From NCBI RefSeq assembly GCF_003790525.1, contig NZ_CP033635.1: a stretch of DNA of 64,000 bases. One strand, 5' to 3'. The stretch is from Escherichia coli (GTDB lineage Bacteria > Pseudomonadota > Gammaproteobacteria > Enterobacterales > Enterobacteriaceae). Below, in pieces: positions 12,337 to 28,810 of the stretch (positions are counted from its first letter, which is position 1; every line of letters starts with the position of its first letter). Under the pieces are notes generated by a model. The model was not told where the DNA came from. It ran no database searches and saw only the letters and a list, made by a program, of their open reading frames with translations. Both the position numbers and the translations under genes were made by a program.

Positions 12337-12497
12337 CTTTATGGTGTCATAAACTTAAATCTAGCGCCGGGTAGAACAAGTTAATCGAACGATGTAGCGG
12401 CCATTTAGGCGTTACAGAAAGAACAGAATTTTAAATTTATAGTGAAGCCGTTGCAGCAACTTTGTGGGGTGCAACCAACACTGAACAGGAAAAGAAA

Positions 12498-14921
12498 ATG
12501 GATCATAGTGTACATAACAAGCTCATCTCATTTATTTGGAACATTGCCGACGACTGTTTACGTGATGTGTACGTTCGCGGTAAGTACCGCGATGTGATTT
12601 TACCTATGGTGGTATTACGACGTTTAGATACGTTACTTGAACCCACCAAAGAAGCCGTGCTTGAAGAGGTCAAGTTCCAAAAAGAAGAGATGCAAGCCAC
12701 GGAGCTTGATGATGAACCATTGAAGGCGGCTAGTGGTTATGTTTTTTACAATACATCTAAATGGACCCTGAAATCCCTGTTCAACACCGCAACGAATAAC
12801 CAACAGATATTACTCGCCAACTTTGAAGAGTACCTGCTTGGCTTTAGCGATAATGTTAAAGAAATCATTGAATGCTTTAACCTCAAGTCGCAAATTCGTC
12901 ACATGGCCTCAAAGCAAGTCCTTCTTGATGTCGTCGAAAAGTTTGTTTCCCCTTACATCAACTTAACTCATGAAACGATCGAAGACCCAGATGGCAACAA
13001 GATGCCAGCCCTTACTAACCTGGGTATGGGGTACGTGTTCGAAGAGTTGATCCGTAAGTTCAACGAGGAGAATAACGAAGAAGCCGGTGAGCACTTTACA
13101 CCTAGGGAAGTGATTGAGCTGATGACACACTTGGTTTTTGACCCAGTGAAAGAGCAGCTACCATTGACCATGACCGTTTACGACCCTGCGTGTGGTAGCG
13201 GTGGTATGCTCACTGAATCTCAAAACTTCATTGAAGAGAAATACCCGAACGACAGCCGAGATATTTACCTTTACGGCAAAGAGATCAATGACGAGACCTA
13301 CGCGATTTGTAAATCGGACATGATGATCAAAGGTAACAACCCTGAGAACATCAAGGTAGGCTCAACCTTGTCTACCGACGAGTTTGCGGCTTCTCGCTTT
13401 GACTTTATGTTGTCTAACCCGCCATACGGTAAGAGTTGGGCGTCTGAACAGAAGCATATTAAAGACGGTAGTGACGTGATTGACCCACGTTTTAAGGTTA
13501 GCCTGAAAGACTATTGGGGAAATCTCGAAGTGGTGGATGCCACGCCACGTTCAAGTGATGGCCAGCTGCTCTTTTTAATGGAAATGGTCAACAAGATGAA
13601 AGATCCGAGCGTAAGCCCATTAGGCAGCCGGATTGCTTCTGTTCATAACGGCTCATCGCTCTTTACCGGTGATGCGGGCGGTGGCGAAAGTAACATTCGT
13701 CGCTTCATCATTGAAAACGACATGCTAGATGCCATCGTTCAGTTACCAAATAACCTGTTCTACAACACCGGCATTACCACTTACATTTGGGTGTTGAACA
13801 ACAATAAACCTGAGGCACGTAAAGGTAAGGTGCAACTGATTGATGCCAGCTTGCTATACCGTAAGTTGCGTAAGAACTTAGGTAACAAAAACTGCGAATT
13901 TGCGCCTGAGCACATCACGGAAATCACCGATACTTACCTCGCGTGTGTGGACGTTGAAAGAGCACTTGATGCAAACAATGATCCTATCGGTATCGCCAGT
14001 AAGGTCTTTAGTAATGACGACTTTGGCTACTACAAAGTCACTATCGAGCGCCCAGATCGCCGCAAAGCCAAGTTTACTCAAGATGCCATAGCCCCACTGC
14101 GTTTTGATAAGCAACTTAGTGAAGTGATGGAGTACGTGTACGCAGAGCACGGCGAACGTGTTTACGAAAAAACTGGCTACGGGTCAGATCAGAAAAAGAG
14201 CTTCTTAAAATCCATCGAGAAAGACATTCTTTCTTGGTGTGAAGATAACGACATCAGTCTCAATGCTAAGGCTAAGGCCAAACTGCTTGATGTGAAACAC
14301 TGGCTGGCGCTAAAAGCATTGCTTGAAACTGCACAAACGCTGATGGCTGACATCGGTAGCATTGAATTTGATGACTTCAATAGCTTTAAAACCCAAGTTG
14401 ATAAATCGCTAAAAGCCCATGCTATTAAGCTTTCAGCACCTGAGAAAAATGCCATTCTTCACGCGGTGAGCTGGTATGACGAAACCGCCAAGAAAGTGGT
14501 TAAAAAGGTAGTTAAATTAACGGGTGATAAATTAAACGACCTGCTGGAGCGCTATGAGTGTGAAGTCGCTGACTTGCCAGATTTTGGTTATTACCCCGTT
14601 CCTTCAGCAGAAGGCGGTAAAAAAGGCGAGTATATCACTTACGAGACCAATTCAGACCTGCGAGATACAGAATCTGTTCCATTAAAGCAAAGCATTTACC
14701 AGTACTTCCTAGATGAAGTGAAGCCTCATGTCGATGAAGCATGGATAAACCTAGATACGGTAAAAATTGGCTATGAAATCAGCTTCAATAAGTATTTCTA
14801 CCGTCATAAACCGCTGCGTAGTTTAGAAGAGGTCGCAACCGACATCATCAACCTAGAACAAAAAGCCGAAGGTTTGATTGCGCAGATTCTTGGTGCGGAA
14901 GTAAAAAAGGTTCAGGGGTAA
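12498..14921 (+). CDS. hsdM: Type I restriction-modification system, methyltransferase subunit HsdM (long form with C-terminal extension)
   Basis: N6-adenine MTase motifs DPACGSGGML (motif I) and NPPYG (motif IV); ATG 12498 with RBS AGGAAAAG preferred over TTG 12462. Confidence 0.85.
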   Translation: MDHSVHNKLISFIWNIADDCLRDVYVRGKYRDVILPMVVLRRLDTLLEPTKEAVLEEVKFQKEEMQATELDDEPLKAASGYVFYNTSKWTLKSLFNTATNNQQILLANFEEYLLGFSDNVKEIIECFNLKSQIRHMASKQVLLDVVEKFVSPYINLTHETIEDPDGNKMPALTNLGMGYVFEELIRKFNEENNEEAGEHFTPREVIELMTHLVFDPVKEQLPLTMTVYDPACGSGGMLTESQNFIEEKYPNDSRDIYLYGKEINDETYAICKSDMMIKGNNPENIKVGSTLSTDEFAASRFDFMLSNPPYGKSWASEQKHIKDGSDVIDPRFKVSLKDYWGNLEVVDATPRSSDGQLLFLMEMVNKMKDPSVSPLGSRIASVHNGSSLFTGDAGGGESNIRRFIIENDMLDAIVQLPNNLFYNTGITTYIWVLNNNKPEARKGKVQLIDASLLYRKLRKNLGNKNCEFAPEHITEITDTYLACVDVERALDANNDPIGIASKVFSNDDFGYYKVTIERPDRRKAKFTQDAIAPLRFDKQLSEVMEYVYAEHGERVYEKTGYGSDQKKSFLKSIEKDILSWCEDNDISLNAKAKAKLLDVKHWLALKALLETAQTLMADIGSIEFDDFNSFKTQVDKSLKAHAIKLSAPEKNAILHAVSWYDETAKKVVKKVVKLTGDKLNDLLERYECEVADLPDFGYYPVPSAEGGKKGEYITYETNSDLRDTESVPLKQSIYQYFLDEVKPHVDEAWINLDTVKIGYEISFNKYFYRHKPLRSLEEVATDIINLEQKAEGLIAQILGAEVKKVQG

Positions 14922-14927
14922 GTCGTT

Positions 14928-16238
14928 ATGATGAAGATTTCTGAAATGCCGAAATATGACGATTATGTAGATTCTGGGGTTGAATGGTTGGGACGAGTAC
15001 CTGCTTCTTGGGAATTAACACGATTAGGCACTCGCTTTAATGAGCGTAGATCTAAAGTTTCAGACATTGACTACCCCGCACTCTCCGTAACAAAAAAAGG
15101 CGTTCTACCTCAATTAGATAATGCGGCCAAAACAAAAGATGGCGATAACAGAAAGCTAGTAAAAGAGGGTGACTTTGTTATAAATAGCCGCTCTGATCGG
15201 AAAGGTTCTAGTGGAGTATCTGACAGAGATGGATCAGTATCGCTTATAAATATAGTGCTTAAACCAAAAGGGATTCATCCAAAGTTTTCTGAGCATCTTT
15301 TGAAAAGTCATGCATTTATTGAGGAATACTATCGTGTTGGACGTGGAATTGTCGCAGATTTGTGGACTACTCGATACGATGAAATGCGGACGATTACTAT
15401 ATCTGTTCCTTCACTAGAAGAGCAAACCCGTATCGCCAACTTCCTAGACAAGAAAACCGCTCTAATCGACGAAGCGATTTCGATCAAAGAAAAGCAAATT
15501 AATCTGTTAAAAGAACATAAGCAGATCATCATCCAACAGGCGGTGACCCAAGGGCTTGATCCCAATGTGCCAATGAAAGACTCCGGTGTGGATTGGATTG
15601 GAGATATTCCAGAGCATTGGGAAGTTGTGCCTCTAAAAAGGTTGGCGGTCTTGAGCCCTTCTGTGAAAGTTTCAAATAGAAAGTCCAAAGAATTAGTTAC
15701 TTTCTTAGCGATGGAAAAGGTTTCAACAGATGGATTTATTGATCAAGATACATTAATGCCTATATGTGATGTGAGCCAAGGTTTTACGGTTTTTAACCGG
15801 GGGGATGTGATTGTTGCAAAAATTACACCTTGCTTTGAAAATGGGAAATCTGCTTGGCTTAACAATCTTCAAACTGAGTTTGGATACGGCTCAACCGAGT
15901 TTCACGTTTTAAGATGTGGTCAGAGAATTATAGGAAGTTTTCTCTACTTAATCGTTAGTTCGCCCCTTTTTCTTAATGCCGGTGAGGCTATGATGACTGG
16001 TTCAGCTGGTCAGAAGCGCGTGCCTAGTTCATTTATCCAAAACTTTCCTACCGCAATTCCCGGAGTTGCAGAGCAAGAAAAAATAGTATCAAAGGTAAAA
16101 GAGCTGTTTTCACAGATTGATGTTGTTGTGGCTTCTACGGTAAATCAAATCGAAAAGCTCAAAGAATACAAAACCACCCTGATCAACAGCGCCGTGACAG
16201 GAAAAATAAAAATCACCCCAGAAATGGTTGAGCAATAG
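14928..16238 (+). CDS. hsdS: Type I restriction-modification system, specificity subunit HsdS
   Basis: 436 aa, two-TRD architecture with conserved central and C-terminal helical regions; 6-bp gap after hsdM. Confidence 0.8.
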   Translation: MMKISEMPKYDDYVDSGVEWLGRVPASWELTRLGTRFNERRSKVSDIDYPALSVTKKGVLPQLDNAAKTKDGDNRKLVKEGDFVINSRSDRKGSSGVSDRDGSVSLINIVLKPKGIHPKFSEHLLKSHAFIEEYYRVGRGIVADLWTTRYDEMRTITISVPSLEEQTRIANFLDKKTALIDEAISIKEKQINLLKEHKQIIIQQAVTQGLDPNVPMKDSGVDWIGDIPEHWEVVPLKRLAVLSPSVKVSNRKSKELVTFLAMEKVSTDGFIDQDTLMPICDVSQGFTVFNRGDVIVAKITPCFENGKSAWLNNLQTEFGYGSTEFHVLRCGQRIIGSFLYLIVSSPLFLNAGEAMMTGSAGQKRVPSSFIQNFPTAIPGVAEQEKIVSKVKELFSQIDVVVASTVNQIEKLKEYKTTLINSAVTGKIKITPEMVEQ

Positions 16239-16247
16239 GAAGCGAAT

Positions 16248-17411
16248 ATGTTCACGGTAAATTATCAGACCAACAGGATTAGTCCGGTTAAGACGAAGAG
16301 ATTCAGTGAGTTGGGCTTTACTGAGCGCAAAAATCTTCAGGAATGGTTGGCACACGAGCCTTCCGCACTGGGTGAAGAGCTGCTGATTATTCAAAAAGAG
16401 TTCGATGGCTTTGATGACACCCGTGAACGCTTAGATTTACTGGCACTGGATAAAGATGGCAACTTGGTCATTATTGAAAACAAGCTGGACGATAGTGGCC
16501 GCGATGTGGTGTGGCAGGCGCTTAAATATGCCTCCTACTGCGCAAGTTTAACCAAAGCGCAAATCGTTGAAATTTACCAGCAGTACTTAGACCGCTATGA
16601 GCCTGTAACAGGAGAGGTTGACTTGTTTAATACCCCTGCAAGTGCCTCTGCTAGAATATGTGAGTTTTTGGATGCGCCCGATCTCGATGAGTTAAAGCTC
16701 AACCTGGGTAACAGCCAGCGCATTATGTTAGTTGCGGCAAACTTTCGCAAAGAAGTGACCAGCACCGCGCTGTGGTTATTGGGTCAAGGCATTAGCATTG
16801 CCTGCTTCAAAATCACGCCTTATTCACTGGGTGAACAGCTACTGATTAATATTGACCAGATCATTCCAACGCCAGAAGCGAAAGAGTTGATGATCGGCAT
16901 TAATGCCAAGGAAGCGGAAGAAAAAACCACCGAAGTGGTACTAAAAAACCGCCATACCGTGCGTCGCGAGTACTGGGAGCGTGCCTTAGAGGCGTTTCAG
17001 AAAAGCTCTTGCCAACTCTATAACAACATTAGCCCAAGCAAAGATCATTGGTTATCAGCAGGCTCAGGGCTAAGTGGATGTCCGTATAACCTGATATTTC
17101 TGCAAAAAGAGCTTCGAGTAGAGCTTTGGATCAGCCGTGGGGTTACCGAAGAGAATAAATACCTTTTTGATTTGTTGAGTCAGTCCAAACAAGACATTGA
17201 GCATACTTTTGGTGCAGAACTTGAGTGGATGAGGCTGGATGAGAAGAAATCTTGCCGTATCCAGTTTTCGACCAAAGCTGACGGGTTTAACAAAGAGACT
17301 TGGCCCCAAGCGGTTGCGTGGCACTTAGAGCAGATGACAAAGTTAGAAAAAGCCTTAAAAGGACCGCTGCAAAAAGCGGCTGAGGCAATGAAACAGAAGA
17401 ATTTTGATTAA
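16248..17411 (+). CDS. uncharacterised protein embedded in the Type I R-M operon; N-terminal RecB-like PD-(D/E)xK nuclease signature, C-terminal region of unknown function
   Basis: 387 aa; motifs D63, E77-x-K79 (VIIENK), Q90-x3-Y94; no Walker A; RBS AGGAAG; 9 nt after hsdS stop, 14 nt before hsdR start. Confidence 0.55.
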   Translation: MFTVNYQTNRISPVKTKRFSELGFTERKNLQEWLAHEPSALGEELLIIQKEFDGFDDTRERLDLLALDKDGNLVIIENKLDDSGRDVVWQALKYASYCASLTKAQIVEIYQQYLDRYEPVTGEVDLFNTPASASARICEFLDAPDLDELKLNLGNSQRIMLVAANFRKEVTSTALWLLGQGISIACFKITPYSLGEQLLINIDQIIPTPEAKELMIGINAKEAEEKTTEVVLKNRHTVRREYWERALEAFQKSSCQLYNNISPSKDHWLSAGSGLSGCPYNLIFLQKELRVELWISRGVTEENKYLFDLLSQSKQDIEHTFGAELEWMRLDEKKSCRIQFSTKADGFNKETWPQAVAWHLEQMTKLEKALKGPLQKAAEAMKQKNFD

Positions 17412-17425
17412 GGGAATTTACAATT

Positions 17426-20400
17426 ATGGTCAGTCAAACCAATGAACAAGCATTAGAGTCGGCCATTGAGAAATGTCTGGCTGGGATCAGTACTGAAGAG
17501 CTTAAAGAGGGACTGAGTCAGCAGTCACTGGGTGCTGGATACTTCATTGGTGCTGCTAGTGACTTTAATATGCAATATGCCATTGATGAACGTTTTTTCT
17601 GGCAATTTCTGCAAAAGACACAAGAAGTAGAGTTGGCCAAACTGCAAAAGAACAACCCCTCAGATTGGCAACGTAAGTTACTCGAACGATTTGACCGACT
17701 GATTAAGAAGCATGGCATTCTTCATTTACTTAAGAAAGGGCTAAGCGTAGACGATGCTCATTTCAATTTGCTCTATCCAGCCCCTTTGGCAAGTAGTAGT
17801 GAGAAGGTAAAGCAAAACTTTGCAGATAACGTGTTTAGTTGTACTCGCCAAGTGCGCTATTCCATGGTAAATCCCCTACAAGAAATCGACATGGTATTGT
17901 TTATCAACGGAATACCCTTGATAACGCTGGAGTTGAAGAACGCATGGACCGGGCAAACAGCACGTTATCACGGCCAAAAGCAGTATCGAGATGATCGGGA
18001 TGCAACTCAGCCATTGCTGACCTTTGGCCGCTGCCTAGTGCATATGGCGGTCGATACCGACGAAGTGTATATGACCACCAAGTTATCAGGTAGCAGTACA
18101 TTCTTCTTGCCGTTCAATAAAGGTCACAATCTTGGACAAGGCAACCCGCCGAATCCATCTGGCCATAAAACGGCATACCTATGGCAAGAAGTATTCACTA
18201 AAGACAGCTTGGCGAATATTATTCAGCATTTTGTGCGTCTGGATGGGTCAAGCAAAGATCCATTACCAAAGCGAACCCTGTTCTTTCCTCGATACCATCA
18301 ATTGGATGTGGTGAGAAAATTAGTAGACCATGCCGCCCAGCACGGTGTCGGTCAGACTTACTTAATTCAACACTCAGCCGGTTCAGGTAAGTCTAACTCG
18401 ATTACCTGGGCAGCTTATCAGCTAATTGAAACCTATCCTGCTTCGTCTGATGTGGCAGGCGGAAAAAGCTTGGAGCAGCCGTTGTTTGACTCTGTGATTG
18501 TGGTCACCGATAGACGCCTATTGGACAAGCAGCTGCGGGATAACATTAAAGAGTTTTCTGAAGTAAAGAACATTATTGCCCCAGCGAATAAGTCTTCTGA
18601 GCTTAAGCAGGCGCTGGAGAATGGCAAAAAGATTATTATAACGACGATTCAGAAATTCCCGTTCATTATTGATGGTATCGCCGATCTTAGTGACAAGCGC
18701 TTTGCAGTGATCATCGATGAAGCACACAGCTCACAGTCTGGTTCGGCGCATGACAATATGAACCGAGCGATGGGCAAGTCTGAAGTCGAAGAGGCAGAAG
18801 ATGCTCAGGATAAAATCCTTCAGGCGATGAGATCGCGTAAGATGCGCGGGAATGCGTCGTACCTGGCATTTACAGCGACACCAAAAAACAGCACTTTGGA
18901 GAAATTTGGTCAACGCCAAGAAGATGGCTCTTACAAGCCGTTTCACTTGTATTCGATGAAACAAGCCATTGAAGAAGGCTTCATCTTGGATGTGCTGGCA
19001 AATTATACGACGTACAAAAGTTATTATGAGATTGAGAAATCAATTGCTGATAACCCTGAGTTTGATACCAAAAAGGCGCAGAAAAAACTCAGAGCTTATG
19101 TAGAACGAAGCCAGCAAACAATTGATATCAAGGCAGAGATTATGCTGGAGCATTTTGTTCCGCATGTCGTGAATACGAAAAAGCTCAAAGGTAAAGGTAA
19201 AGGAATGGTGGTCACTCAAAATATTGAGGCGGCCATTCGATACTACAAAGCGATAAGGCGAATACTTGAGGAGCAAGGAAACCCGTTTAAAGTTGCCATT
19301 GCTTTCTCAGGAACCAAAGAAGTTGATGGTATTGAATATACCGAAGCAGATATTAATGGTTTTGCCGAGTCAGATACCAAAGATATGTTTGATACCGATG
19401 AGTATCGACTTTTAGTGGTTGCTAACAAGTATCTGACTGGGTTTGACCAGCCTAAGCTTTGCGCCATGTATGTAGATAAGAAGCTCGCCAGTGTCTTGTG
19501 TGTTCAGGCGCTATCTAGGCTCAATCGCAGTGCACCTAAGCTAGGGAAGAAAACAGAAGACTTGTTTATCCTGGATTTTTTCAACTCGGTTGAAGATATT
19601 CAATCAGCATTCGATCCTTTCTATACAGCAACGTCATTGTCCCAAGCTACAGATATAAACGTACTGCACGAGTTGAAAGATGAAATGGACGATGTCGGTG
19701 TGTACGAGTGGTATGAAGTTGAAGACTTTGTGACGCGTTATTTCAAGAATGAAGACGCCCAAACACTCAGTCCAATCATTGATATTGCCGCAGCGCGGTT
19801 TGACCATGAACTAGATCTTGAAGCTGAAGCTAAAGTGGACTTTAAGATTAAAGCCAAACAGTTCGTTAAAATCTATGGGCAGATGGCTTCTATCATGCCT
19901 TATGAAATGGTCAGCTGGGAAAAACTGTTTTGGTTCCTGAAGTTTTTAATACCGAAATTGAAAGTGGAAGATCCCGATGCTGATGCTATTGATGAGCTTC
20001 TCGATTCTGTCGATCTGAGTTCATACGGTTTGCAACGTGTGAAGCTTAACCACAGCATTAAACTTAGTGACCAAGAAGCGGAGCTTGATCCTCAAAATCC
20101 GAACCCACGTGGGGTGCATGGCGGTGAAAAAGAAACTGACCCGCTGGATGAAATCATTCGCACATTTAATGAGCGATGGTTCCAGGGCTGGAGTGCCACA
20201 CCTGAAGAGCAAAAGGTTAAGTTCGTGAACATCGCTGAAAGTATCCGCAATCACCCTGACTTCGAATCGAAATACAAAAACAACCCAGATCCCCATAATC
20301 GAGATTTGGCCTTCGAAAAAATGCTCAAGGAAATCATGCTGCAACGCCGTAAAGATGAACTTGAGCTCTACAAGTTGTTCGCAGGAGATTCAGCATTTAA

Positions 20401-20443
20401 AGCCTCGTGGACGCAAAGTATGCAACGAATGGTAGGTAGGTAG
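17426..20443 (+). CDS. hsdR: Type I restriction enzyme, endonuclease/translocase subunit HsdR
   Basis: 1005 aa; N-terminal PD-(D/E)xK (DMVLFINGIPLITLELK), SF2 helicase motifs GSGKS and DEAH. Confidence 0.85.
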   Translation: MVSQTNEQALESAIEKCLAGISTEELKEGLSQQSLGAGYFIGAASDFNMQYAIDERFFWQFLQKTQEVELAKLQKNNPSDWQRKLLERFDRLIKKHGILHLLKKGLSVDDAHFNLLYPAPLASSSEKVKQNFADNVFSCTRQVRYSMVNPLQEIDMVLFINGIPLITLELKNAWTGQTARYHGQKQYRDDRDATQPLLTFGRCLVHMAVDTDEVYMTTKLSGSSTFFLPFNKGHNLGQGNPPNPSGHKTAYLWQEVFTKDSLANIIQHFVRLDGSSKDPLPKRTLFFPRYHQLDVVRKLVDHAAQHGVGQTYLIQHSAGSGKSNSITWAAYQLIETYPASSDVAGGKSLEQPLFDSVIVVTDRRLLDKQLRDNIKEFSEVKNIIAPANKSSELKQALENGKKIIITTIQKFPFIIDGIADLSDKRFAVIIDEAHSSQSGSAHDNMNRAMGKSEVEEAEDAQDKILQAMRSRKMRGNASYLAFTATPKNSTLEKFGQRQEDGSYKPFHLYSMKQAIEEGFILDVLANYTTYKSYYEIEKSIADNPEFDTKKAQKKLRAYVERSQQTIDIKAEIMLEHFVPHVVNTKKLKGKGKGMVVTQNIEAAIRYYKAIRRILEEQGNPFKVAIAFSGTKEVDGIEYTEADINGFAESDTKDMFDTDEYRLLVVANKYLTGFDQPKLCAMYVDKKLASVLCVQALSRLNRSAPKLGKKTEDLFILDFFNSVEDIQSAFDPFYTATSLSQATDINVLHELKDEMDDVGVYEWYEVEDFVTRYFKNEDAQTLSPIIDIAAARFDHELDLEAEAKVDFKIKAKQFVKIYGQMASIMPYEMVSWEKLFWFLKFLIPKLKVEDPDADAIDELLDSVDLSSYGLQRVKLNHSIKLSDQEAELDPQNPNPRGVHGGEKETDPLDEIIRTFNERWFQGWSATPEEQKVKFVNIAESIRNHPDFESKYKNNPDPHNRDLAFEKMLKEIMLQRRKDELELYKLFAGDSAFKASWTQSMQRMVGR

Positions 20444-20933: not shown

Positions 20934-21685
20934 TCTGTCAATGCAACACCCCTTTCAATTATCTCTTTCGGTGTTTTGAACTTCAGTGTCTTTCTCGGTC
21001 TGTTGTTTAGCTGAGCAGCAACCAGATCTAGTTCATGTTGAGTATATTGGGCAAGACATGTCTTTTTAGGAAAGTACTGCCGAATTAGCCCATTTGTGTT
21101 CTCATTTGTTCCCCGCTGCCAAGGACTCTGAGGATCGCAGAAGTAAACTTTAACGCCGGTGCTGACAGTAAATTCTAGATGTCTGGCCAGTTCCATTCCT
21201 CTGTCCCATGTCAGTGATTTTCTGAGTTCTGACGGTAAACTCAGGAATTTGTCGGTAAGAGCCTGATTTACTGAGACAGAATCTTTGCCCCTGAGTCTAA
21301 GGATGATCGTATAACGTGATTTTCGGTCTACAAGTGTGGCTATATGAGAGTTTTTTGTACCTGAGACTAAATCGCCCTCCCAATGCCCCAGAGAGCGTCT
21401 GTTATCGATATTTCGGGAACGTTCGTGAATTGGTGTTCCGTTCACTATGTTAATCGTACCTCTTTCGCCTTTGCGGGTATGACGCCTGCCATGGCGAAGG
21501 CTATGCGACCGTCGCAGATGCTGTATATTCAGGTGGTGTAGCGCTTCACGGCTACGAAAGTACAGCGTTTTATAAATTGTCTCAGGTGATATTCGCAGCG
21601 TTTTTTGACGTGGTTTTGTTCGCCTTAACCATCCTGATATTTGCTCTGGAGACCATTTCATCTCCAGCTTTTCCAGAACAAGGTA
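20926..21685 (-). mobile_element. IS30 fragment (3' about 60 percent, including right end), inserted into IS911 orfA
   Basis: Minus-strand product matches IS30 transposase from ...LVLEKLEMKWSPEQISGWL... to C-terminus; N-terminal HTH region absent. Confidence 0.8.
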
Positions 21686-22250
21686 AGCGTAAACCGACCG
21701 CCGTATGTAGCCATTAGACAAGAATTGGTAACTTAGACGCCCATCTGACACAGACGGACATCTAAGTATGGAATTACAGGACTGGCGAAAAGAACCTCTA
21801 AAAAGTATTCGAATGAATTCAAACTTCGTATGATTGACTGGCATCACAACCCGGTGCTTGTGTGGCCCAGATTGCTCGAGAAAATGGCGTCAATGATAAT
21901 GTTATTTTCAAATGGCTCAGACTTTGGCAAAACGAAGGGCGTATATCGCGGCGTCTTCCGGTAACAACCTCTTCTGACACTGGCGTTGAATTATTACCTG
22001 TGGAGATAACGCCGGATGAGCCGCAAGAACCGGTGGCTGCTCTTACTCCGTCTTTATCCACCCAGACTACTGTCAGTGCCAGCTCCTGCAAGGTGGAGTT
22101 CCGTCACGGTAACATGACGCTGGAAAATCCTTCACCAGATCTGCTCACAGTGTTGCTCCGTGAACTGAGCGGGAGGGGACAATGATCTCACTCCCGTCAG
22201 GTACCCGCATCTGGCTGGGTGCCGGCATTACCGATATGCGTAAATCCTTC
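21686..22250 (+). mobile_element. IS66-family remnant (frameshifted orfA, truncated orfB start)
   Basis: ...AQIARENGVNDNVIFKWLRLWQNEGR... and MISLPSGTRIWLGAGITDMRKSFNG then premature stop; boundaries approximate. Confidence 0.6.
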
Positions 22251-22997
22251 AACGGATACGACATATGCTGAAGGAGGAGCAGTAATGGATTAAGTGATAA
22301 CAAATGCCCAGAAATAGAGGTTTAAATCCTGCTTAGTTAGTACATAAATACTATTTTGATGAAAATTATTATATGTCACCTCGGATTTTAATCAGGCGCC
22401 CAGATTAAATCAAGTATTGAGCGCCTGATTATGTTTATTCATTAATATCTGTCATTGATTGTCTTATTATCAGTTACCCCCGTCTTAATCAGAGTTTTCA
22501 TTTATTTTTAATGCATAATCAGATGCCGCCTCATCATTATCCTCAGTATTATCATAGCCGAAAACTTCTCCCGGGCACGGGCGTTCACGATAATAGTCAT
22601 CGTTATAGTTTTCATCGTCAGATAATGATATGTCGTATTCTGAATATGATTCACCACAATTATACATAAAATCATCTCCTTTGGGATTGTTACAATAATT
22701 AGTGAGTTTATTCGAAAAAATAATGAGCGCCAGACCAATCCACCCGACTTTTGATTATAATCATGAAGATACCTGTCTCAGTACAAATAGAATCAAACTC
22801 AATACAGCATGATTCACCTTTATATTCTCTCAGGGAAACCAAATACCACTATTCAACTATTAAGAATAAAATTCTGGAGGTGCGATTATCTGAAGATACC
22901 TGCATCCTAAATAATTTCAGACAGATATTATCTCCGTGAATCCCCCGCCACCTTTCCGGTGCGCGGGGTTTTGTCTTTTTTCACCGGGAATACATGT

Positions 22998-23870
22998 ATG
23001 AATCCGTCTGATGCCATTGAGGCAATTGAAAAACCACTGGCCTCCCTGCCTAATTCGCTTTCCCGCCATATCCTCGAACATCTGCGCAAACTCACCAGCC
23101 ACGAACCCGTGATTGGCATTATGGGTAAAAGCGGGGCCGGTAAATCCTCACTCTGTAATGCACTGTTTCAGGGGGAGGTCACCCCGGTCAGTGATGTTCA
23201 CGCCGGCACCCGGGAAGTGCGGCGCTTCCGTCTGAGTGGCCACGGTCACAGCATGATTATCACTGACCTGCCCGGGGTGGGCGAGAGCCGGGACAGGGAT
23301 GCAGAGTATGAAGCCCTGTACCGTGACATTCTGCCTGAACTTGACCTGGTACTGTGGCTGATTAAAGCCGATGACCGTGCCCTGTCTGTGGATGAGTATT
23401 TCTGGCGACACATCCTGCACCGGGGACATCAGCAGGTGCTGTTTGTGGTGACGCAGGCCGACAAAACGGAGCCCTGCCATGAATGGGATATGGCCGGCAT
23501 TCAGCCTTCTCCCGCACAGGCACAGAACATTCGTGAGAAAACAGATGCGGTATTCCGGCTGTTCCGGCCCGTACATCCGGTTGTGGCCGTATCGGCCCGC
23601 ACCGGCTGGGAACTGGATACGCTGGTCAGTGCGCTCATGACAGCACTTCCCGACCATGCCGCCAGTCCCCTGATGACCCGCCTGCAGGACGAGCTGTGCA
23701 CGGAATCTGTCCGGGGGCAGGCCCGTGAACAGTTTACCGGTGCGGTGGACCGGATATTTGACACGGCGGAGAGCGTCTGTGTTGCCTCTGTGGCTCGTAC
23801 GGTTCTGCGTGCCGTCCGTGACACGGTGGTCTCTGTTGCCCGCGCTGTATGGAACTGGATTTTCTTCTGA
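22998..23870 (+). CDS. island-associated GTPase (YeeP/YkfA/YfjP family)
   Basis: MNPSDAIEAIEKPL... with P-loop GIMGKSGAGKSS. Confidence 0.75.
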   Translation: MNPSDAIEAIEKPLASLPNSLSRHILEHLRKLTSHEPVIGIMGKSGAGKSSLCNALFQGEVTPVSDVHAGTREVRRFRLSGHGHSMIITDLPGVGESRDRDAEYEALYRDILPELDLVLWLIKADDRALSVDEYFWRHILHRGHQQVLFVVTQADKTEPCHEWDMAGIQPSPAQAQNIREKTDAVFRLFRPVHPVVAVSARTGWELDTLVSALMTALPDHAASPLMTRLQDELCTESVRGQAREQFTGAVDRIFDTAESVCVASVARTVLRAVRDTVVSVARAVWNWIFF

Positions 23871-23984
23871 ACAGTCTGCCAGGGGAAATGCCTGATTACA
23901 TTGCGTTAACCAACTGAAAACATGACACAAACACCTCATCCCCCTCCTGTTTCTCTTGCGTGACTGCCTTGCTGTTAATAGAAC

Positions 23985-24030
23985 AAAACGATCAATAAGA
24001 CAGGTGTCGATCGTTGCCATCGATCGTTTG
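23985..24030 (+). promoter_or_regulatory. antigen 43 phase-variation switch: three clustered Dam GATC sites (OxyR operator region)
   Basis: GATC at 23990, 24009 and 24022, about 220 bp upstream of the flu start codon. Confidence 0.55.
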
Positions 24031-24242
24031 TAGTGGTTAATGGTCTGCGAAAAGGCAGCTGAATCTCTTCATCATGCATAACGGAATTGCACACAACGGA
24101 CTGATACTTCTCTGGCGGATGAGAGAGGGAAAGCATTTATGTCCGGGAAAAACCACTTTATCTGACCATGCTGTTTTGTACCTGCCGGTATCCACTTTTG
24201 TGGGTACCGGCTTTTTTATTCACCCTCTGTAAGGAAAAGCTG

Positions 24243-27089
24243 ATGAAACGACATCTGAACACCAGCTACAGGCTGGTATGGAATCACATTACGGGCACCC
24301 TGGTGGTGGCTTCCGAACTGGCGCGCTCACGGGGAAAACGCACCGGTGTGGCGGTTGCACTGTCTCTTGCTGCTGTCACATCAGTCCCGGCACTGGCTGC
24401 TGACACGGTTGTACAGGCGGGAGAAACCGTGAACGATGGAACACTGACAAATCATGACAACCAGATTGTCTTCGGTACGGCCAACGGAATGACCATCAGT
24501 ACCGGGCTGGAGTATGGGCCGGATAACGAGGCCAATACCGGCGGACAATGGATACAAAATGGCGGTATCGCCAACAACACTACTGTCACCGGTGGTGGTC
24601 TTCAGAGAGTGAATGCCGGAGGAAGCGTTTCAGACACGGTTATCAGTGCCGGAGGCGGACAGAGCCTTCAGGGGCAGGCAGTGAATACCACTCTGAACGG
24701 CGGTGAGCAGTGGGTACATGAAGGCGGGATTGCAACGGGTACCGTCATTAATGAGAAGGGCTGGCAGGCCGTCAAATCCGGCGCAATGGCAACCGACACG
24801 GTTGTGAATACCGGCGCGGAAGGGGGACCGGATGCAGAAAATGGTGATACCGGGCAGTTTGTTCGCGGAAATGCCGTACGCACCACCATCAATAAAAATG
24901 GTCGTCAGATTGTGGCTGCTGAAGGAACGGCAAATACCACTGTGGTTTATGCCGGCGGCGACCAGACTGTACATGGTCACGCACTGGATACCACGCTGAA
25001 TGGGGGGTACCAGTATGTGCACAACGGCGGTACGGCGTCTGGCACTGTTGTAAACAGTGACGGCTGGCAGATTATCAAGGAAGGTGGTCTGGCGGATTTC
25101 ACCATCGTTAACCAGAAAGGCAAACTGCAGGTGAACGCCGGTGGTACAGCCACGAATGTCACCCTGAAGCAGGGAGGCGCACTGGTCACCAGTACGGCGG
25201 CAACCGTCACCGGCAGCAACCGTCTGGGCAATTTCACTGTGGAAAACGGTAATGCTGACGGTGTTGTTCTGGAGTCCGGTGGTCGCCTGGATGTACTGGA
25301 GGGCCATTCAGCCTGGAAAACACTGGTGGATGACGGCGGAACCCTGGCAGTGTCTGCCGGTGGTAAGGCAACAGATGTCACCATGACATCCGGTAGTGCC
25401 CTGATTGCAGACAGTGGTGCCACTGTTGAGGGGACCAATGCCAGCGGTAAGTTCAGTATTGATGGCACATCCGGTCAGGCCAGCGGACTGCTGCTGGAAA
25501 ATGGCGGCAGCTTTACGGTTAATGCCGGAGGACTGGCCAGCAACACCACTGTCGGACATCGTGGAACACTGACGCTGGCTGCCGGGGGAAGTCTGAGTGG
25601 CAGAACACAGCTCAGTAAAGGCGCCAGTATGGTACTGAATGGTGATGTGGTCAGTACCGGCGATATTGTTAACGCAGGAGAGATTCACTTTGATAATCAG
25701 ACGACACAGGAAGCCGCGCTGAGCCGTGCTGTTGCAAAAGGCGACGCCCCGGTAACGTTCCATAAACTGACAACCAGTAACCTCACCGGCCAGGGCGGCA
25801 CCATCAATATGCGTGTTAGCCTTGATGGCAGCAATGCCTCTGACCAGCTGGTGATTAATGGTGGTCAGGCAACCGGCAAAACCTGGCTTGCGTTTACAAA
25901 TGTCGGGAACAGCAACCTCGGTGTGGCAACCACCGGACAGGGTATCCGGGTTGTGGATGCACAGAATGGCGCCACCACAGAAGAAGGTGCGTTTGCCCTG
26001 AGTCGCCCGCTTCAGGCCGGCGCCTTTAACTACACCCTGAACCGTGACAGCGATGAAGACTGGTACCTGCGCAGTGAAAATGCTTATCGTGCTGAAGTCC
26101 CCCTGTATACATCCATGTTGACACAGGCAATGGACTATGACCGGATTCTGGCAGGCTCCCGCAGCCATCAGATCGGTGTAAACGGTGAAAATAACAGCGT
26201 CCGTCTCAGCATTCAGGGCGGTCATCTCGGTCACGATAACAACGGCGGTATTGCCCGTGGAGCCACGCCGGAAAGCAGCGGCAGCTATGGCTTCGTCCGT
26301 CTGGAGGGTGACCTGCTCAGAACAGAGGTTGCCGGTATGTCTCTGACGACAGGGGTGTATGGTGCTGCAGGCCATTCTTCCGTTGATGTTAAGGATGATG
26401 ACGGTTCCCGCGCCGGCACGGTCCGGGATGATGCCGGCAGCCTGGGCGGATACCTGAATCTGACACACACGTCCTCCGGCCTGTGGGCTGACATTGTGGC
26501 ACAGGGAACCCGCCACAGCATGAAAGCGTCATCGGACAATAACGACTTCCGCGCCCGGGGCTGGGGCTGGCTGGGCTCACTGGAAACCGGTCTGCCCTTC
26601 AGTATCACTGACAACCTGATGCTGGAACCACAACTGCAGTATACCTGGCAGGGACTCTCCCTGGATGACGGCCAGGATAACGCCGGTTATGTGAAGTTCG
26701 GGCATGGCAGTGCACAACATGTGCGTGCCGGTTTCCGTCTGGGCAGCCACAACGATATGAGCTTTGGTGAAGGCACCTCATCCCGTGACACCCTGCGCGA
26801 CAGTGCAAAACACAGTGTGAGTGAACTGCCGGTGAACTGGTGGGTACAGCCTTCTGTTATCCGCACCTTCAGCTCCCGGGGTGACATGAGCATGGGTACA
26901 GCTGAAGCCGGCAGTAACATGACGTTCTCACCGTCACAGAATGGCACGTCACTGGACCTGCAGGCCGGACTGGAAGCCCGTGTCCGGGAAAATATCACTC
27001 TGGGCGTTCAGGCCGGTTATGCCCACAGCGTCAGCGGCAACAGCGCTGAAGGCTATAACGGTCAGGCCACGCTGAATGTGACTTTCTGA
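24243..27089 (+). CDS. flu: antigen 43 (Ag43) self-associating autotransporter adhesin
   Basis: Extended autotransporter signal peptide MKRHLNTSYRLVWNHITG..., repetitive beta-helix passenger, C-terminal beta-barrel ending ...ATLNVTF. Confidence 0.85.
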   Translation: MKRHLNTSYRLVWNHITGTLVVASELARSRGKRTGVAVALSLAAVTSVPALAADTVVQAGETVNDGTLTNHDNQIVFGTANGMTISTGLEYGPDNEANTGGQWIQNGGIANNTTVTGGGLQRVNAGGSVSDTVISAGGGQSLQGQAVNTTLNGGEQWVHEGGIATGTVINEKGWQAVKSGAMATDTVVNTGAEGGPDAENGDTGQFVRGNAVRTTINKNGRQIVAAEGTANTTVVYAGGDQTVHGHALDTTLNGGYQYVHNGGTASGTVVNSDGWQIIKEGGLADFTIVNQKGKLQVNAGGTATNVTLKQGGALVTSTAATVTGSNRLGNFTVENGNADGVVLESGGRLDVLEGHSAWKTLVDDGGTLAVSAGGKATDVTMTSGSALIADSGATVEGTNASGKFSIDGTSGQASGLLLENGGSFTVNAGGLASNTTVGHRGTLTLAAGGSLSGRTQLSKGASMVLNGDVVSTGDIVNAGEIHFDNQTTQEAALSRAVAKGDAPVTFHKLTTSNLTGQGGTINMRVSLDGSNASDQLVINGGQATGKTWLAFTNVGNSNLGVATTGQGIRVVDAQNGATTEEGAFALSRPLQAGAFNYTLNRDSDEDWYLRSENAYRAEVPLYTSMLTQAMDYDRILAGSRSHQIGVNGENNSVRLSIQGGHLGHDNNGGIARGATPESSGSYGFVRLEGDLLRTEVAGMSLTTGVYGAAGHSSVDVKDDDGSRAGTVRDDAGSLGGYLNLTHTSSGLWADIVAQGTRHSMKASSDNNDFRARGWGWLGSLETGLPFSITDNLMLEPQLQYTWQGLSLDDGQDNAGYVKFGHGSAQHVRAGFRLGSHNDMSFGEGTSSRDTLRDSAKHSVSELPVNWWVQPSVIRTFSSRGDMSMGTAEAGSNMTFSPSQNGTSLDLQAGLEARVRENITLGVQAGYAHSVSGNSAEGYNGQATLNVTF

Positions 27090-27111
27090 TAATCAGGTCA
27101 CTCCCCTTCAG

Positions 27112-27140
27112 GCCCCGGTCATCATGACCGGGGCTTTTTA
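27112..27140 (+). terminator. rho-independent terminator after flu
   Basis: GCCCCGGTCAT-c-ATGACCGGGGC hairpin followed by TTTTT. Confidence 0.6.
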
Positions 27141-27415
27141 CTTTCAGGGAGCAACAGATATGCCGGGTTGTACATCACGTTTATTGCCGAAGGCTCTTTT
27201 GCTGCCAAATGGCATCTGAATCGTTCACAATTTGGCCGGTTATTGCCCGATCCCGATGGGGTTATTGGGTGATCTCCTTCCATAAAAATACGCAGCTCGC
27301 CAGTGAAGGGCTTCTCAGACAATAAACGTCATTCATTTCGTCCATCAGGCCGCGTCTTCTCCGGGAGACGCGGCTTTTTCATTTATACCGCTAACTCATT
27401 CATAAGGAATAAATC

Positions 27416-28234
27416 ATGCGATTAGCCAGTCGTTTTGGTTATGCGAACCAGATACGCCGTGACCGCCCCTTAACCCGTGAAGAACTGATGCAGGTCGTCC
27501 CCAGCGTATTCGGGGAAGAGAAACACACATCCAGAAGCGAGAACTATACCTGGATCCCCACCATCACCGTGCTGGAAAGCCTGCAGCGGGAAGGCTTCCA
27601 ACCATTCTTCGCCTGCCAGACCCGCGTGCGCGACCCGGGCCGCCGGGGATACACCAAACACATGCTGCGTCTGCGCCGTGACGGGGAGATAAACGGACAA
27701 CATGTCCCTGAAATCATCCTGCTGAACTCCCATGACGGTACCTCCAGCTACCAGATGCTGCCGGGTTACTTCAGGTTCGTCTGCCAGAACGGATGCGTCT
27801 GTGGTCAGTCTCTGGGGGAAGTGCGTGTTCCACACCGGGGAGACGTAGTGGAGAAAGTTATCGAAGGGGCTTACGAGGTGGTGGGGGTTTTTGACCGGAT
27901 TGAGGAGAAGCGTGATGCCATGCAGTCGCTGGTCCTGCCGCCACCGGCACGCCAGGCGCTGGCACAGGCGGCACTGACTTACCGTTATGGTGACGAACAT
28001 CAGCCCGTCACCACTGCTGACATTCTGACACCGCGACGCCGGGAGGATTACGGTAAGGACCTGTGGAGCGCATATCAGACCATCCAGGAGAATATGCTGA
28101 AAGGCGGGATTTCCGGTCGCAGTGCCAGAGGAAAACGTATCCATACCCGTGCCATTCACAGCATCGACACGGACATTAAGCTCAATCGCGCATTGTGGGT
28201 GATGGCAGAAACACTGCTGAAGAGTATGCGCTGA
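27416..28234 (+). CDS. DUF932-family island protein (YfjQ/YafZ-like)
   Basis: 272 aa, recalled similarity to CP4-prophage YfjQ/YafZ proteins. Confidence 0.6.
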   Translation: MRLASRFGYANQIRRDRPLTREELMQVVPSVFGEEKHTSRSENYTWIPTITVLESLQREGFQPFFACQTRVRDPGRRGYTKHMLRLRRDGEINGQHVPEIILLNSHDGTSSYQMLPGYFRFVCQNGCVCGQSLGEVRVPHRGDVVEKVIEGAYEVVGVFDRIEEKRDAMQSLVLPPPARQALAQAALTYRYGDEHQPVTTADILTPRRREDYGKDLWSAYQTIQENMLKGGISGRSARGKRIHTRAIHSIDTDIKLNRALWVMAETLLKSMR

Positions 28235-28324
28235 TGCCTTTTCCCTGAAAGCGCAGTTCTGACTCATGTCCGTCCCTGCCCCGCGACTTCTTCCATTCAT
28301 TTACTTTTTATAAGGAATAATCTC

Positions 28325-28810
28325 ATGACAACCGTTTTGCATAATTCCACCACACCTTCTGTTTCCGTAACCGCTGTATCAGAGAATAACCCGCCTCAAC
28401 TGGTTGCCACCCTCGTCCCTGATGAACAGCGCATCAGCTTCTGGCCGCAGCATTTTGGCCTCATTCCACAGTGGGTGACCCTGGAGCCCCGTGTCTTCGG
28501 CTGGATGGACCGTCTGTGCGAAGACTACTGCGGTGGTATCTGGAATCTGTACACCCTGAACAACGGCGGGGCATTTATGGCACCCGAACCGGATGACGAT
28601 GATGACGAAACATGGGTACTGTTCAGTGCCATGAACGGTAACCGCGCTGAAATGAGCCCCGAAGCCGCCGGCATTGCTGCCTGTCTGATGACGTACAGCC
28701 ATCATGCCTGTCGTACGGAGTGTTATGCCATGACGGTCCATTATTACCGGCTGCGGGATTACGCCCTGCAGCATCCGGAATGCAACGCCATTATGCGCAT
28801 CATTGACTGA
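28325..28810 (+). CDS. antirestriction protein, KlcA/ArdB-like (YfjX/YafX family)
   Basis: 161 aa, characteristic ...WVTLEPRVFGWMDRLCEDYCGGIWNLYTLNNGGAFMAP... Confidence 0.7.
   Translation: MTTVLHNSTTPSVSVTAVSENNPPQLVATLVPDEQRISFWPQHFGLIPQWVTLEPRVFGWMDRLCEDYCGGIWNLYTLNNGGAFMAPEPDDDDDETWVLFSAMNGNRAEMSPEAAGIAACLMTYSHHACRTECYAMTVHYYRLRDYALQHPECNAIMRIID

Follow-up and report, generated by a model that had tools for sequence, protein, structure and literature searches.

Our results indicate that the long HsdM protein encoded in a 64,000-nucleotide stretch of Escherichia coli DNA (RefSeq assembly GCF_003790525.1, contig NZ_CP033635.1; here called the window) carries its extra region as an internal insertion, and not as a C-terminal appendage. 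The gene, hsdM, is already known and correctly annotated; its product is the methyltransferase subunit in a type I restriction-modification (R-M) system. We consider it probable, at roughly 0.6, that the protein combines a canonical core with an accessory peripheral insert, a C-terminal module and a terminal helix that binds the specificity subunit HsdS, as a member of a long-form HsdM subfamily.

A preliminary description of the same DNA had called this HsdM unusually long next to the EcoKI type, and had proposed an additional domain in a C-terminal extension. The first point stands. The open reading frame (ORF) encodes 807 amino acids, the RefSeq coding sequence is identical, and the protein is ~280 residues longer than HsdM of EcoKI or EcoR124I. 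The second point holds only in part: there is a folded region that EcoKI and EcoR124I HsdM lack, but it is inserted internally, at residues 525-715.

Domain organization of HsdM

The protein can be divided into the following parts, all on the + strand of the window:

12525..12944, +: HsdM N-terminal helical domain, residues 10-149 (Pfam PF12161, HsdM_N, E = 7.6e-23)
13026..13955, +: N6-adenine methyltransferase catalytic domain, residues 177-486 (Pfam PF02384, N6_Mtase, E = 7.4e-60)
13182-13205, +: motif I, DPACGSGG, by its position in the catalytic domain
13416-13430, +: motif IV, NPPYG, by its position in the catalytic domain
13992..14069, +: post-catalytic element of strand, short helix and strand, residues 499-524, SKVFSNDDFGYYKVTIERP (strands 500-505, 510-517 and 521-524 in the model)
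14070..14642, +: accessory insert, residues 525-715 (absent from relatives of 573-585 amino acids; AlphaFold2 model)
14643..14822, +: subfamily-specific beta-rich C-terminal module, residues 716-775 (alignment conservation; strands in the full model)
14823..14918, +: terminal amphipathic helix (776-798) and a short tail (helix in both AlphaFold2 models)

The front of the protein is that of an ordinary HsdM. It has the HsdM_N domain and an N6-adenine methyltransferase domain with the S-adenosylmethionine motif and NPPY, and it shares the fold of solved HsdM subunits. HsdM chains in the PDB align to it by sequence only to about residue 480-499, and Pfam assigns nothing to residues 487-807, even at E <= 10. 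The preliminary description placed both motifs within the first ~320 residues, which agrees with their positions at residues 229-236 (motif I) and 307-311 (motif IV). It also counted ~490 residues beyond them. Indeed, 496 residues follow NPPY, but any HsdM has a catalytic domain that extends far beyond this motif; here it runs on to residue 486 and the hairpin to residue 524, and the real excess is ~250 residues. More precisely, the excess over an HsdM of ~520 amino acids consists of these ~250 residues (525-775) plus ~40 in small N-terminal and catalytic insertions. The description of the C-terminal region as charged and helical was roughly right: D, E, K and R make up 31% of residues 491-807 versus 25–27% elsewhere, and residues 481-807 are 50% helix and 19% strand in the AlphaFold2 (AF2) model.

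Two small insertions outside the C-terminal region occur in the closest relatives only. These are a beta-hairpin, KVSLKDYWGNLEVVDAT, at 13470-13547 of the window (residues ~325-350) and a loop, THETIEDPDGNKMPALT, at ~12969-13022 (residues ~158-175). Together they account for ~40 residues of HsdM length.

The post-catalytic element at residues 499-524 has the consensus SKxFxNxDFGYxKVTxERP, which is kept in all aligned members, long and short. This element presumably corresponds to the hairpin that stands before the C-terminal tail in canonical HsdM.

An internal insertion between conserved elements

Relatives were collected from a representative set of 1.8 billion proteins, in which residues 481-807 matched 2409 clusters at E <= 1e-3, and E. 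coli HsdM was aligned with full-length relatives of 573-799 amino acids. In this alignment, the relatives of 573-585 amino acids show a clean deletion of residues ~525-715, while the module at 716-775 and the final helix are kept. Because these relatives lack the insert but possess the module and the helix, the extra region is best described as an internal insertion.

The insert and the module evolve very differently. Insert length ranges from 8 to 230 amino acids across the relatives and falls into classes of 13-15, ~35, 60, 90, 110-150 and 160-218 amino acids; the shortest forms have 13-15, mid-length forms ~90, a typical form 168 and E. coli HsdM 191, apart from small extra loops. The insert is also the fastest-evolving region of HsdM (27–50% identity versus 47–82% in the core). 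Its conserved positions are L534, R535, G620, D626, N628, F630, D661, A664, V667, G697 and Y715, and the motifs LRFD, DxNxF and SWxDxxAxxV are conserved in the main clade. The module, by comparison, is conserved to the same degree as the catalytic domain, with the consensus SDLRDxExVPL...EVxPHVPDAWID...IGYEISFNKYFY...PLRSLEEI in E. coli HsdM and its relatives of 573-799 amino acids.

This architecture is shared by relatives of quite different length. The 573-585-amino-acid forms P0236 and P0269, the 675-amino-acid WP_004152345 from Klebsiella IncF plasmids and the 792-amino-acid HsdM of Citrobacter freundii pOZ172 have the same catalytic core as E. coli HsdM. They also share the module (...PHVPDAWID...GYEI.F.+YFY...), the terminal helix, the M-S-(x)-R operon and the HsdR family. 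A 799-amino-acid homologue with 71% identity is colinear with E. coli HsdM over its whole length.

Predicted structure of the insert and module

An AF2 model of full-length HsdM, built with a 128-sequence alignment, reached a mean predicted local distance difference test score (pLDDT) of 92.7 and a predicted template modelling score of 0.85. Block means of pLDDT were mostly 93-98 over residues 481-770 and 73-88 over the last ~40 residues, and a model of residues 525-807 alone reached 93.7. In these models, the insert is an independently folding, mostly helical domain of ~190 residues. It is predicted to be 60% helix, with seven main helices and two short beta-hairpins; the helices span residues 528-535, 538-556, 574-583, 590-596, 599-619, 627-640, 647-656, 676-686 and 690-696. 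The module is mixed, with strands at 723-728 and 749-759, and residues 776-798 form one long helix.

The two module strands are formed in the full-length model and lost in the model of residues 525-807. Hence, they seem to need residues 499-524, from which we infer that the module pairs with the post-catalytic hairpin. The same loss suggests that the insert is looped out between neighbouring strands.

Sequence and fold comparisons linked residues 525-807 to no Pfam family and to no solved structure. Searches of Pfam, NCBIfam and PDB sequences with residues 481-807 and 702-807 returned nothing except DUF6650, which was below threshold (E = 0.014) and was taken as a chance hit because it recurs in only 2 of 126 family members. 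A profile of the 92-amino-acid module plus helix compared against the PDB gave only noise (a spectrin SH3 circular permutant at E = 0.08 and GCN4 coiled coils) and no HsdM chain. A homology search with the insert only, which is a weak test as the tool lists mostly query-length proteins, retrieved HsdM fragments and no other architecture. Literature searches gave no description of the region at residues 525-807.

Canonical HsdM proteins (EcoR124I, 7BST; EcoKI, 2AR0 and 2Y7C; PacII M1 and M2, 7VRU and 7VS4; 3LKD; 3KHK) lack the ~250 residues that are present here between hairpin and terminal helix, and neither the insert nor the 60-residue module matches these chains, even at E <= 10. HsdM of Vibrio vulnificus YJ016 (7EEW) is also long, at 638 amino acids, but is only 16% identical to E. 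coli HsdM; its extra parts have no sequence match to residues 481-807 and no fold match to residues 525-807.

The terminal helix as probable HsdS-binding tail

In canonical type I enzymes, the HsdS coiled coil is joined in a four-helix bundle by the C-terminal tail of each of the two M subunits, and PacII fails to assemble once the M tails are deleted (PMC9613975). Helix 776-798 is most likely this usual HsdS-binding tail. In long and short forms alike, no other element occupies the extreme C-terminus, and the family alignment shows no gaps in this helix. Read from its sequence, the helix is amphipathic with a heptad-like hydrophobic spacing of 3-4 residues, and its profile gave the weak matches to GCN4 coiled coils. 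Our assignment draws on all of these features, and on the fact that in natural fusions of M and S a target recognition domain (TRD) follows the helix.

Such single-chain M-S fusions occur within the subfamily in P0150 (1021 amino acids) and P0180 (a fragment of 622 amino acids). In both, a single Methylase_S TRD begins ~30 residues past the terminal helix of HsdM. These fusions imply enzymes of the form (M-S-half)2.

The preliminary description had also allowed for its C-terminal region being simply the standard HsdS-binding region of a known long-form subfamily. The subfamily does exist. Within this protein, though, the standard region could be no more than the last ~25-30 residues, and the other ~250 align to nothing standard.

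A widespread long-form subfamily

We scanned one genome per species for DNA encoding the module pattern GYEISFN[KR]YFY and reconstructed the ORFs. The pattern was found at no fewer than 120 loci in at least 120 species-representative genomes. The matches listed include Proteobacteria, Bacteroidota, Verrucomicrobiota, Chloroflexota, Cyanobacteria, Planctomycetota, Spirochaetota, Gemmatimonadota, Acidobacteriota, Campylobacterota and Firmicutes. Among these listed matches, 53 of the 67 complete genes encode 775-854 amino acids (mode 781), with minor classes of 582, 656-674 and 707-716 amino acids, and the modal insert of 168 amino acids (101 species sequences) compares with 191 in E. coli HsdM. 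In plasmid records, the module is present in 788, of which 519 are from Klebsiella, and the full insert in 82.

E. coli HsdM has the marks of this subfamily: the module LRDxE...EVxPxxxxAW...GYEIxFxxxFY and the terminal helix, in near-invariant or invariant columns of alignments A1, A2 and A4, and a helical insert of 191 amino acids between post-catalytic hairpin and module. The PADLOC profile MTase_I PDLC03029 matches it end to end (residues 2-798 versus profile positions 2-660 of 661, E = 3.3e-268). The long-form subfamily is thus large, widespread and pan-bacterial, and the E. coli protein is an ordinary member of it. By sequence, ~780-800 amino acids is the norm for these proteins, and E. 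coli HsdM is unusual only next to EcoKI; within its own subfamily its length is unremarkable.

These lengths also bear on the idea that the long ORF is an artefact, in which a frameshift or a lost stop codon joined hsdM to a downstream gene, or of which only a degenerate remnant is left. The surroundings would lend themselves to such an event: pseudogenes and fragments of insertion sequences (IS) abound in the island, and directly upstream is a group II intron. Yet the identical ORF occurs in at least 10 complete E. coli genomes, the identity is at least 99% in 31, and 61 of 5426 genomes, on chromosomes as well as plasmids, contain a copy. In addition, the 71%-identical homologue is colinear throughout, most complete genes in other species have a similar length, the AF2 model is confident throughout, and the insert was found only inside HsdM proteins. 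We regard the artefact as effectively refuted. An ORF of 807 codons that matches N6_Mtase at E = 7e-60 and PADLOC MTase_I at E = 3e-268, and that has colinear homologues across many phyla, is also far from anything expected by chance.

Gene and operon

Judged from its sequence, the window is an E. coli genomic island with a functional-looking type I R-M system. The hsdM gene is encoded together with hsdS and hsdR in one operon, hsdM-hsdS-DUF4268-hsdR:

12498..14921, +: hsdM, 807 amino acids, type I R-M methyltransferase subunit of the long-form subfamily (Pfam, PADLOC, RefSeq)
14928..16238, +: hsdS, specificity subunit of 436 amino acids, starting 6 nucleotides past the hsdM stop (Pfam Methylase_S; PADLOC Specificity_I, E = 2e-118)
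16248..17411, +: embedded gene for a 387-amino-acid DUF4268 protein (PADLOC candidate PDC-S11), outside the core enzyme (Pfam, PADLOC, RefSeq)
17426..20443, +: hsdR, restriction and translocase subunit of 1005 amino acids (Pfam HSDR_N, ResIII, SWI2_SNF2, T1R_D3-like; TIGR00348)

The ORF of hsdM runs from an ATG at 12498 to a stop at 14919-14921, and RefSeq annotates the same coordinates as 'type I restriction-modification system subunit M' (WP_001407279.1). An alternative in-frame TTG at 12462 would give 819 amino acids. The ATG is the preferred start because a ribosome-binding site, AGGAAA, precedes it by 7-12 nucleotides.

Operon partners do not vary with the insert

A partner-binding or regulatory role had been suggested in the preliminary description. 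Under this reading, the C-terminal region would be a dedicated domain that, for example, docks the DUF4268/PDC-S11 protein or a subfamily-specific part of HsdR, and thereby couples or controls restriction. This region is folded, conserved and unlike any solved structure, a candidate defence gene is embedded directly downstream of hsdS, and Pfam assigns nothing to the final ~215 residues of HsdR, all of which would suit such a domain. However, comparison of the genes embedded in related operons points the other way:

Long HsdM, this window: DUF4268
Long HsdM, P0121: SLFN_AlbA_2 and HATPase_c_4
Long HsdM, P0136: DUF1016/YhcG
Long HsdM, P0163 and C. freundii pOZ172: none
Short HsdM, P0236: unknown gene of 381 amino acids
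Short HsdM, P0269: GmrSD_N gene and unknown gene of 383 amino acids
Mid-length HsdM (675 amino acids), Klebsiella IncF plasmid: none

Long forms thus occur with quite different embedded genes or with none (P0163, pOZ172), and short forms without the insert have embedded genes as well. Similarly, HsdR is colinear end to end between short- and long-form operons; HsdR from a short-form operon aligns to E. coli HsdR over residues 38-994, as do the long-form HsdRs, with no domain gained or lost. We therefore rejected both a pairing of the insert with the embedded DUF4268 protein, for which the operon comparisons show no co-variation, and a pairing with a special HsdR domain. A dedicated partner-binding domain seems unlikely to us. 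The absence of co-variation with the embedded gene or HsdR, together with the natural relatives that lack the insert, leads us to regard the insert as an accessory domain.

The slot between hsdM/hsdS and hsdR differs in almost every relative (L002, 12766-14409; L005, 4115-5260; L008, 9188-12153; L009, 2923-4546), and BLAST finds no similarity between the 381- and 383-amino-acid slot proteins, or between either of them and the DUF4268 protein. The slot looks like a hotspot for embedded defence genes. A comparable layout, M-S-x-x-R with embedded tgvAB, is found in the type I system of Vibrio cholerae VPI-2 (PMC11411939).

The 387-amino-acid protein of the window (16248-17411) has DUF4268 at residues 238-372 and an end-to-end match to PDC-S11 (E = 4.5e-182), and its N-terminus shows a weak match to NucS-like endonucleases (NCBIfam, E = 2e-5, below cut-off). 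From these matches, it is probably an embedded defence candidate of nuclease type. In HsdR, the usual type I C-terminal families were not detected by Pfam in the last ~215 residues (~790-1005), which are kept colinearly in related operons.

Possible role of the insert

Under the reading that we favour, two M subunits and one S subunit would assemble through the terminal helix on the coiled coil of HsdS, as in other type I enzymes. At the base of this helix, the module and the hairpin at 499-524 would combine into a small beta subdomain, from which the insert would project as a peripheral accessory surface. The insert may then modulate the complex without being required for core assembly of M2S or R2M2S; since relatives that naturally lack the insert retain the same S and R partners, it appears dispensable there. 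Most likely, it would act as a buttress or extra contact surface in M2S or R2M2S, touching the second M subunit, S and its TRD, the DNA backbone or HsdR. Such a tuning role could be likened to that of helical add-on domains such as the knob of the type IIB enzyme BsaXI (8W0P). This is an analogy only. The multi-helical BsaXI knob is inserted between strands 7 and 8 of the central sheet, whereas the E. coli insert follows the post-catalytic hairpin; no knob insertion of the BsaXI type is present in E. coli HsdM, and fold comparison found no resemblance of the knob to residues 525-807.

Several observations weigh against this interpretation. The pairing of module and hairpin was deduced solely from a difference in secondary structure between two AF2 models, and where the insert lies with respect to HsdS, DNA and HsdR was inferred, not seen. 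The two halves of the insert have median net charges of -2.5 and 0, which makes it neutral to slightly acidic. Identity in the C-terminal region is 56–80% across phyla, and 90% or more of the aligned species-representative sequences retain A664 and V667. Conservation this strong within the main clade speaks for a specific function, which the term 'buttress' may understate. Finally, the protein scores 106.8 bits against the NCBIfam hsdM equivalog TIGR00497, below the cut-off of 242.75, and over residues 177-480 only. The latter score also agrees with a subfamily separate from EcoKI and EcoR124I.

One alternative is that the insert is an extra nucleic-acid-binding domain, built as a winged helix or a small SAM-like helical bundle, and touches the DNA that flanks the target site. 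Helices 627-640 and 647-656 and the hairpin 658-673 look like a helix-helix-wing arrangement, and the segment 627-673 is the best-conserved part of the insert. However, the net charge is neutral to negative across the family, which argues against a simple DNA-binding role, and Pfam finds no helix-turn-helix family in any of the 126 members. We think this alternative quite improbable. There is also a slim chance that residues 525-715 represent an undescribed fold with a specific regulatory job, for instance in the open/closed transition or restriction alleviation, in sensitivity to Ocr or ArdA, or in docking the defence genes of the slot.

Surroundings of the operon and an odd relative

Directly upstream of hsdM, a group II intron reverse transcriptase/maturase (RVT_1 and GIIM, 10333-11691) lies inside a disrupted IS3-family transposase, whose halves flank the intron at 8771-9576 and 11844-12239 (window 8771-12239, +; L001 9274-12764). 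Downstream of hsdR, L001 (strain SCEC020022) contains IS30 and IS66 remnants, a GTPase-family gene, an Ag43/Cah autotransporter and a DUF932 gene at 21162-28424. This is the usual content of an integrative island of E. coli, and fits the patchy distribution of the gene (61 of 5426 genomes).

One protein from a metagenome contig, P0086 (544 amino acids), joins a trypsin-like protease domain (residues 83-262) to a region equivalent to HsdM residues 493-800. Rather than a genuine architecture, it is probably a remnant of deletion or rearrangement. In L003, hsdR has a trypsin/PDZ gene within a few kb.

Implications

The practical import of these results is small, as the protein is a common long-form type I methyltransferase. 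They do single out ~250 confidently modelled residues, in a very widespread HsdM subfamily, that have neither a Pfam family nor a solved homologue. The subfamily includes the 675-amino-acid HsdM on a conjugative IncFIB/IncFII plasmid of Klebsiella, and its natural members without the insert offer a ready-made experiment on the insert. Once known, the role of the insert could refine models of type I assembly and explain why this type of operon often hosts embedded defence genes.

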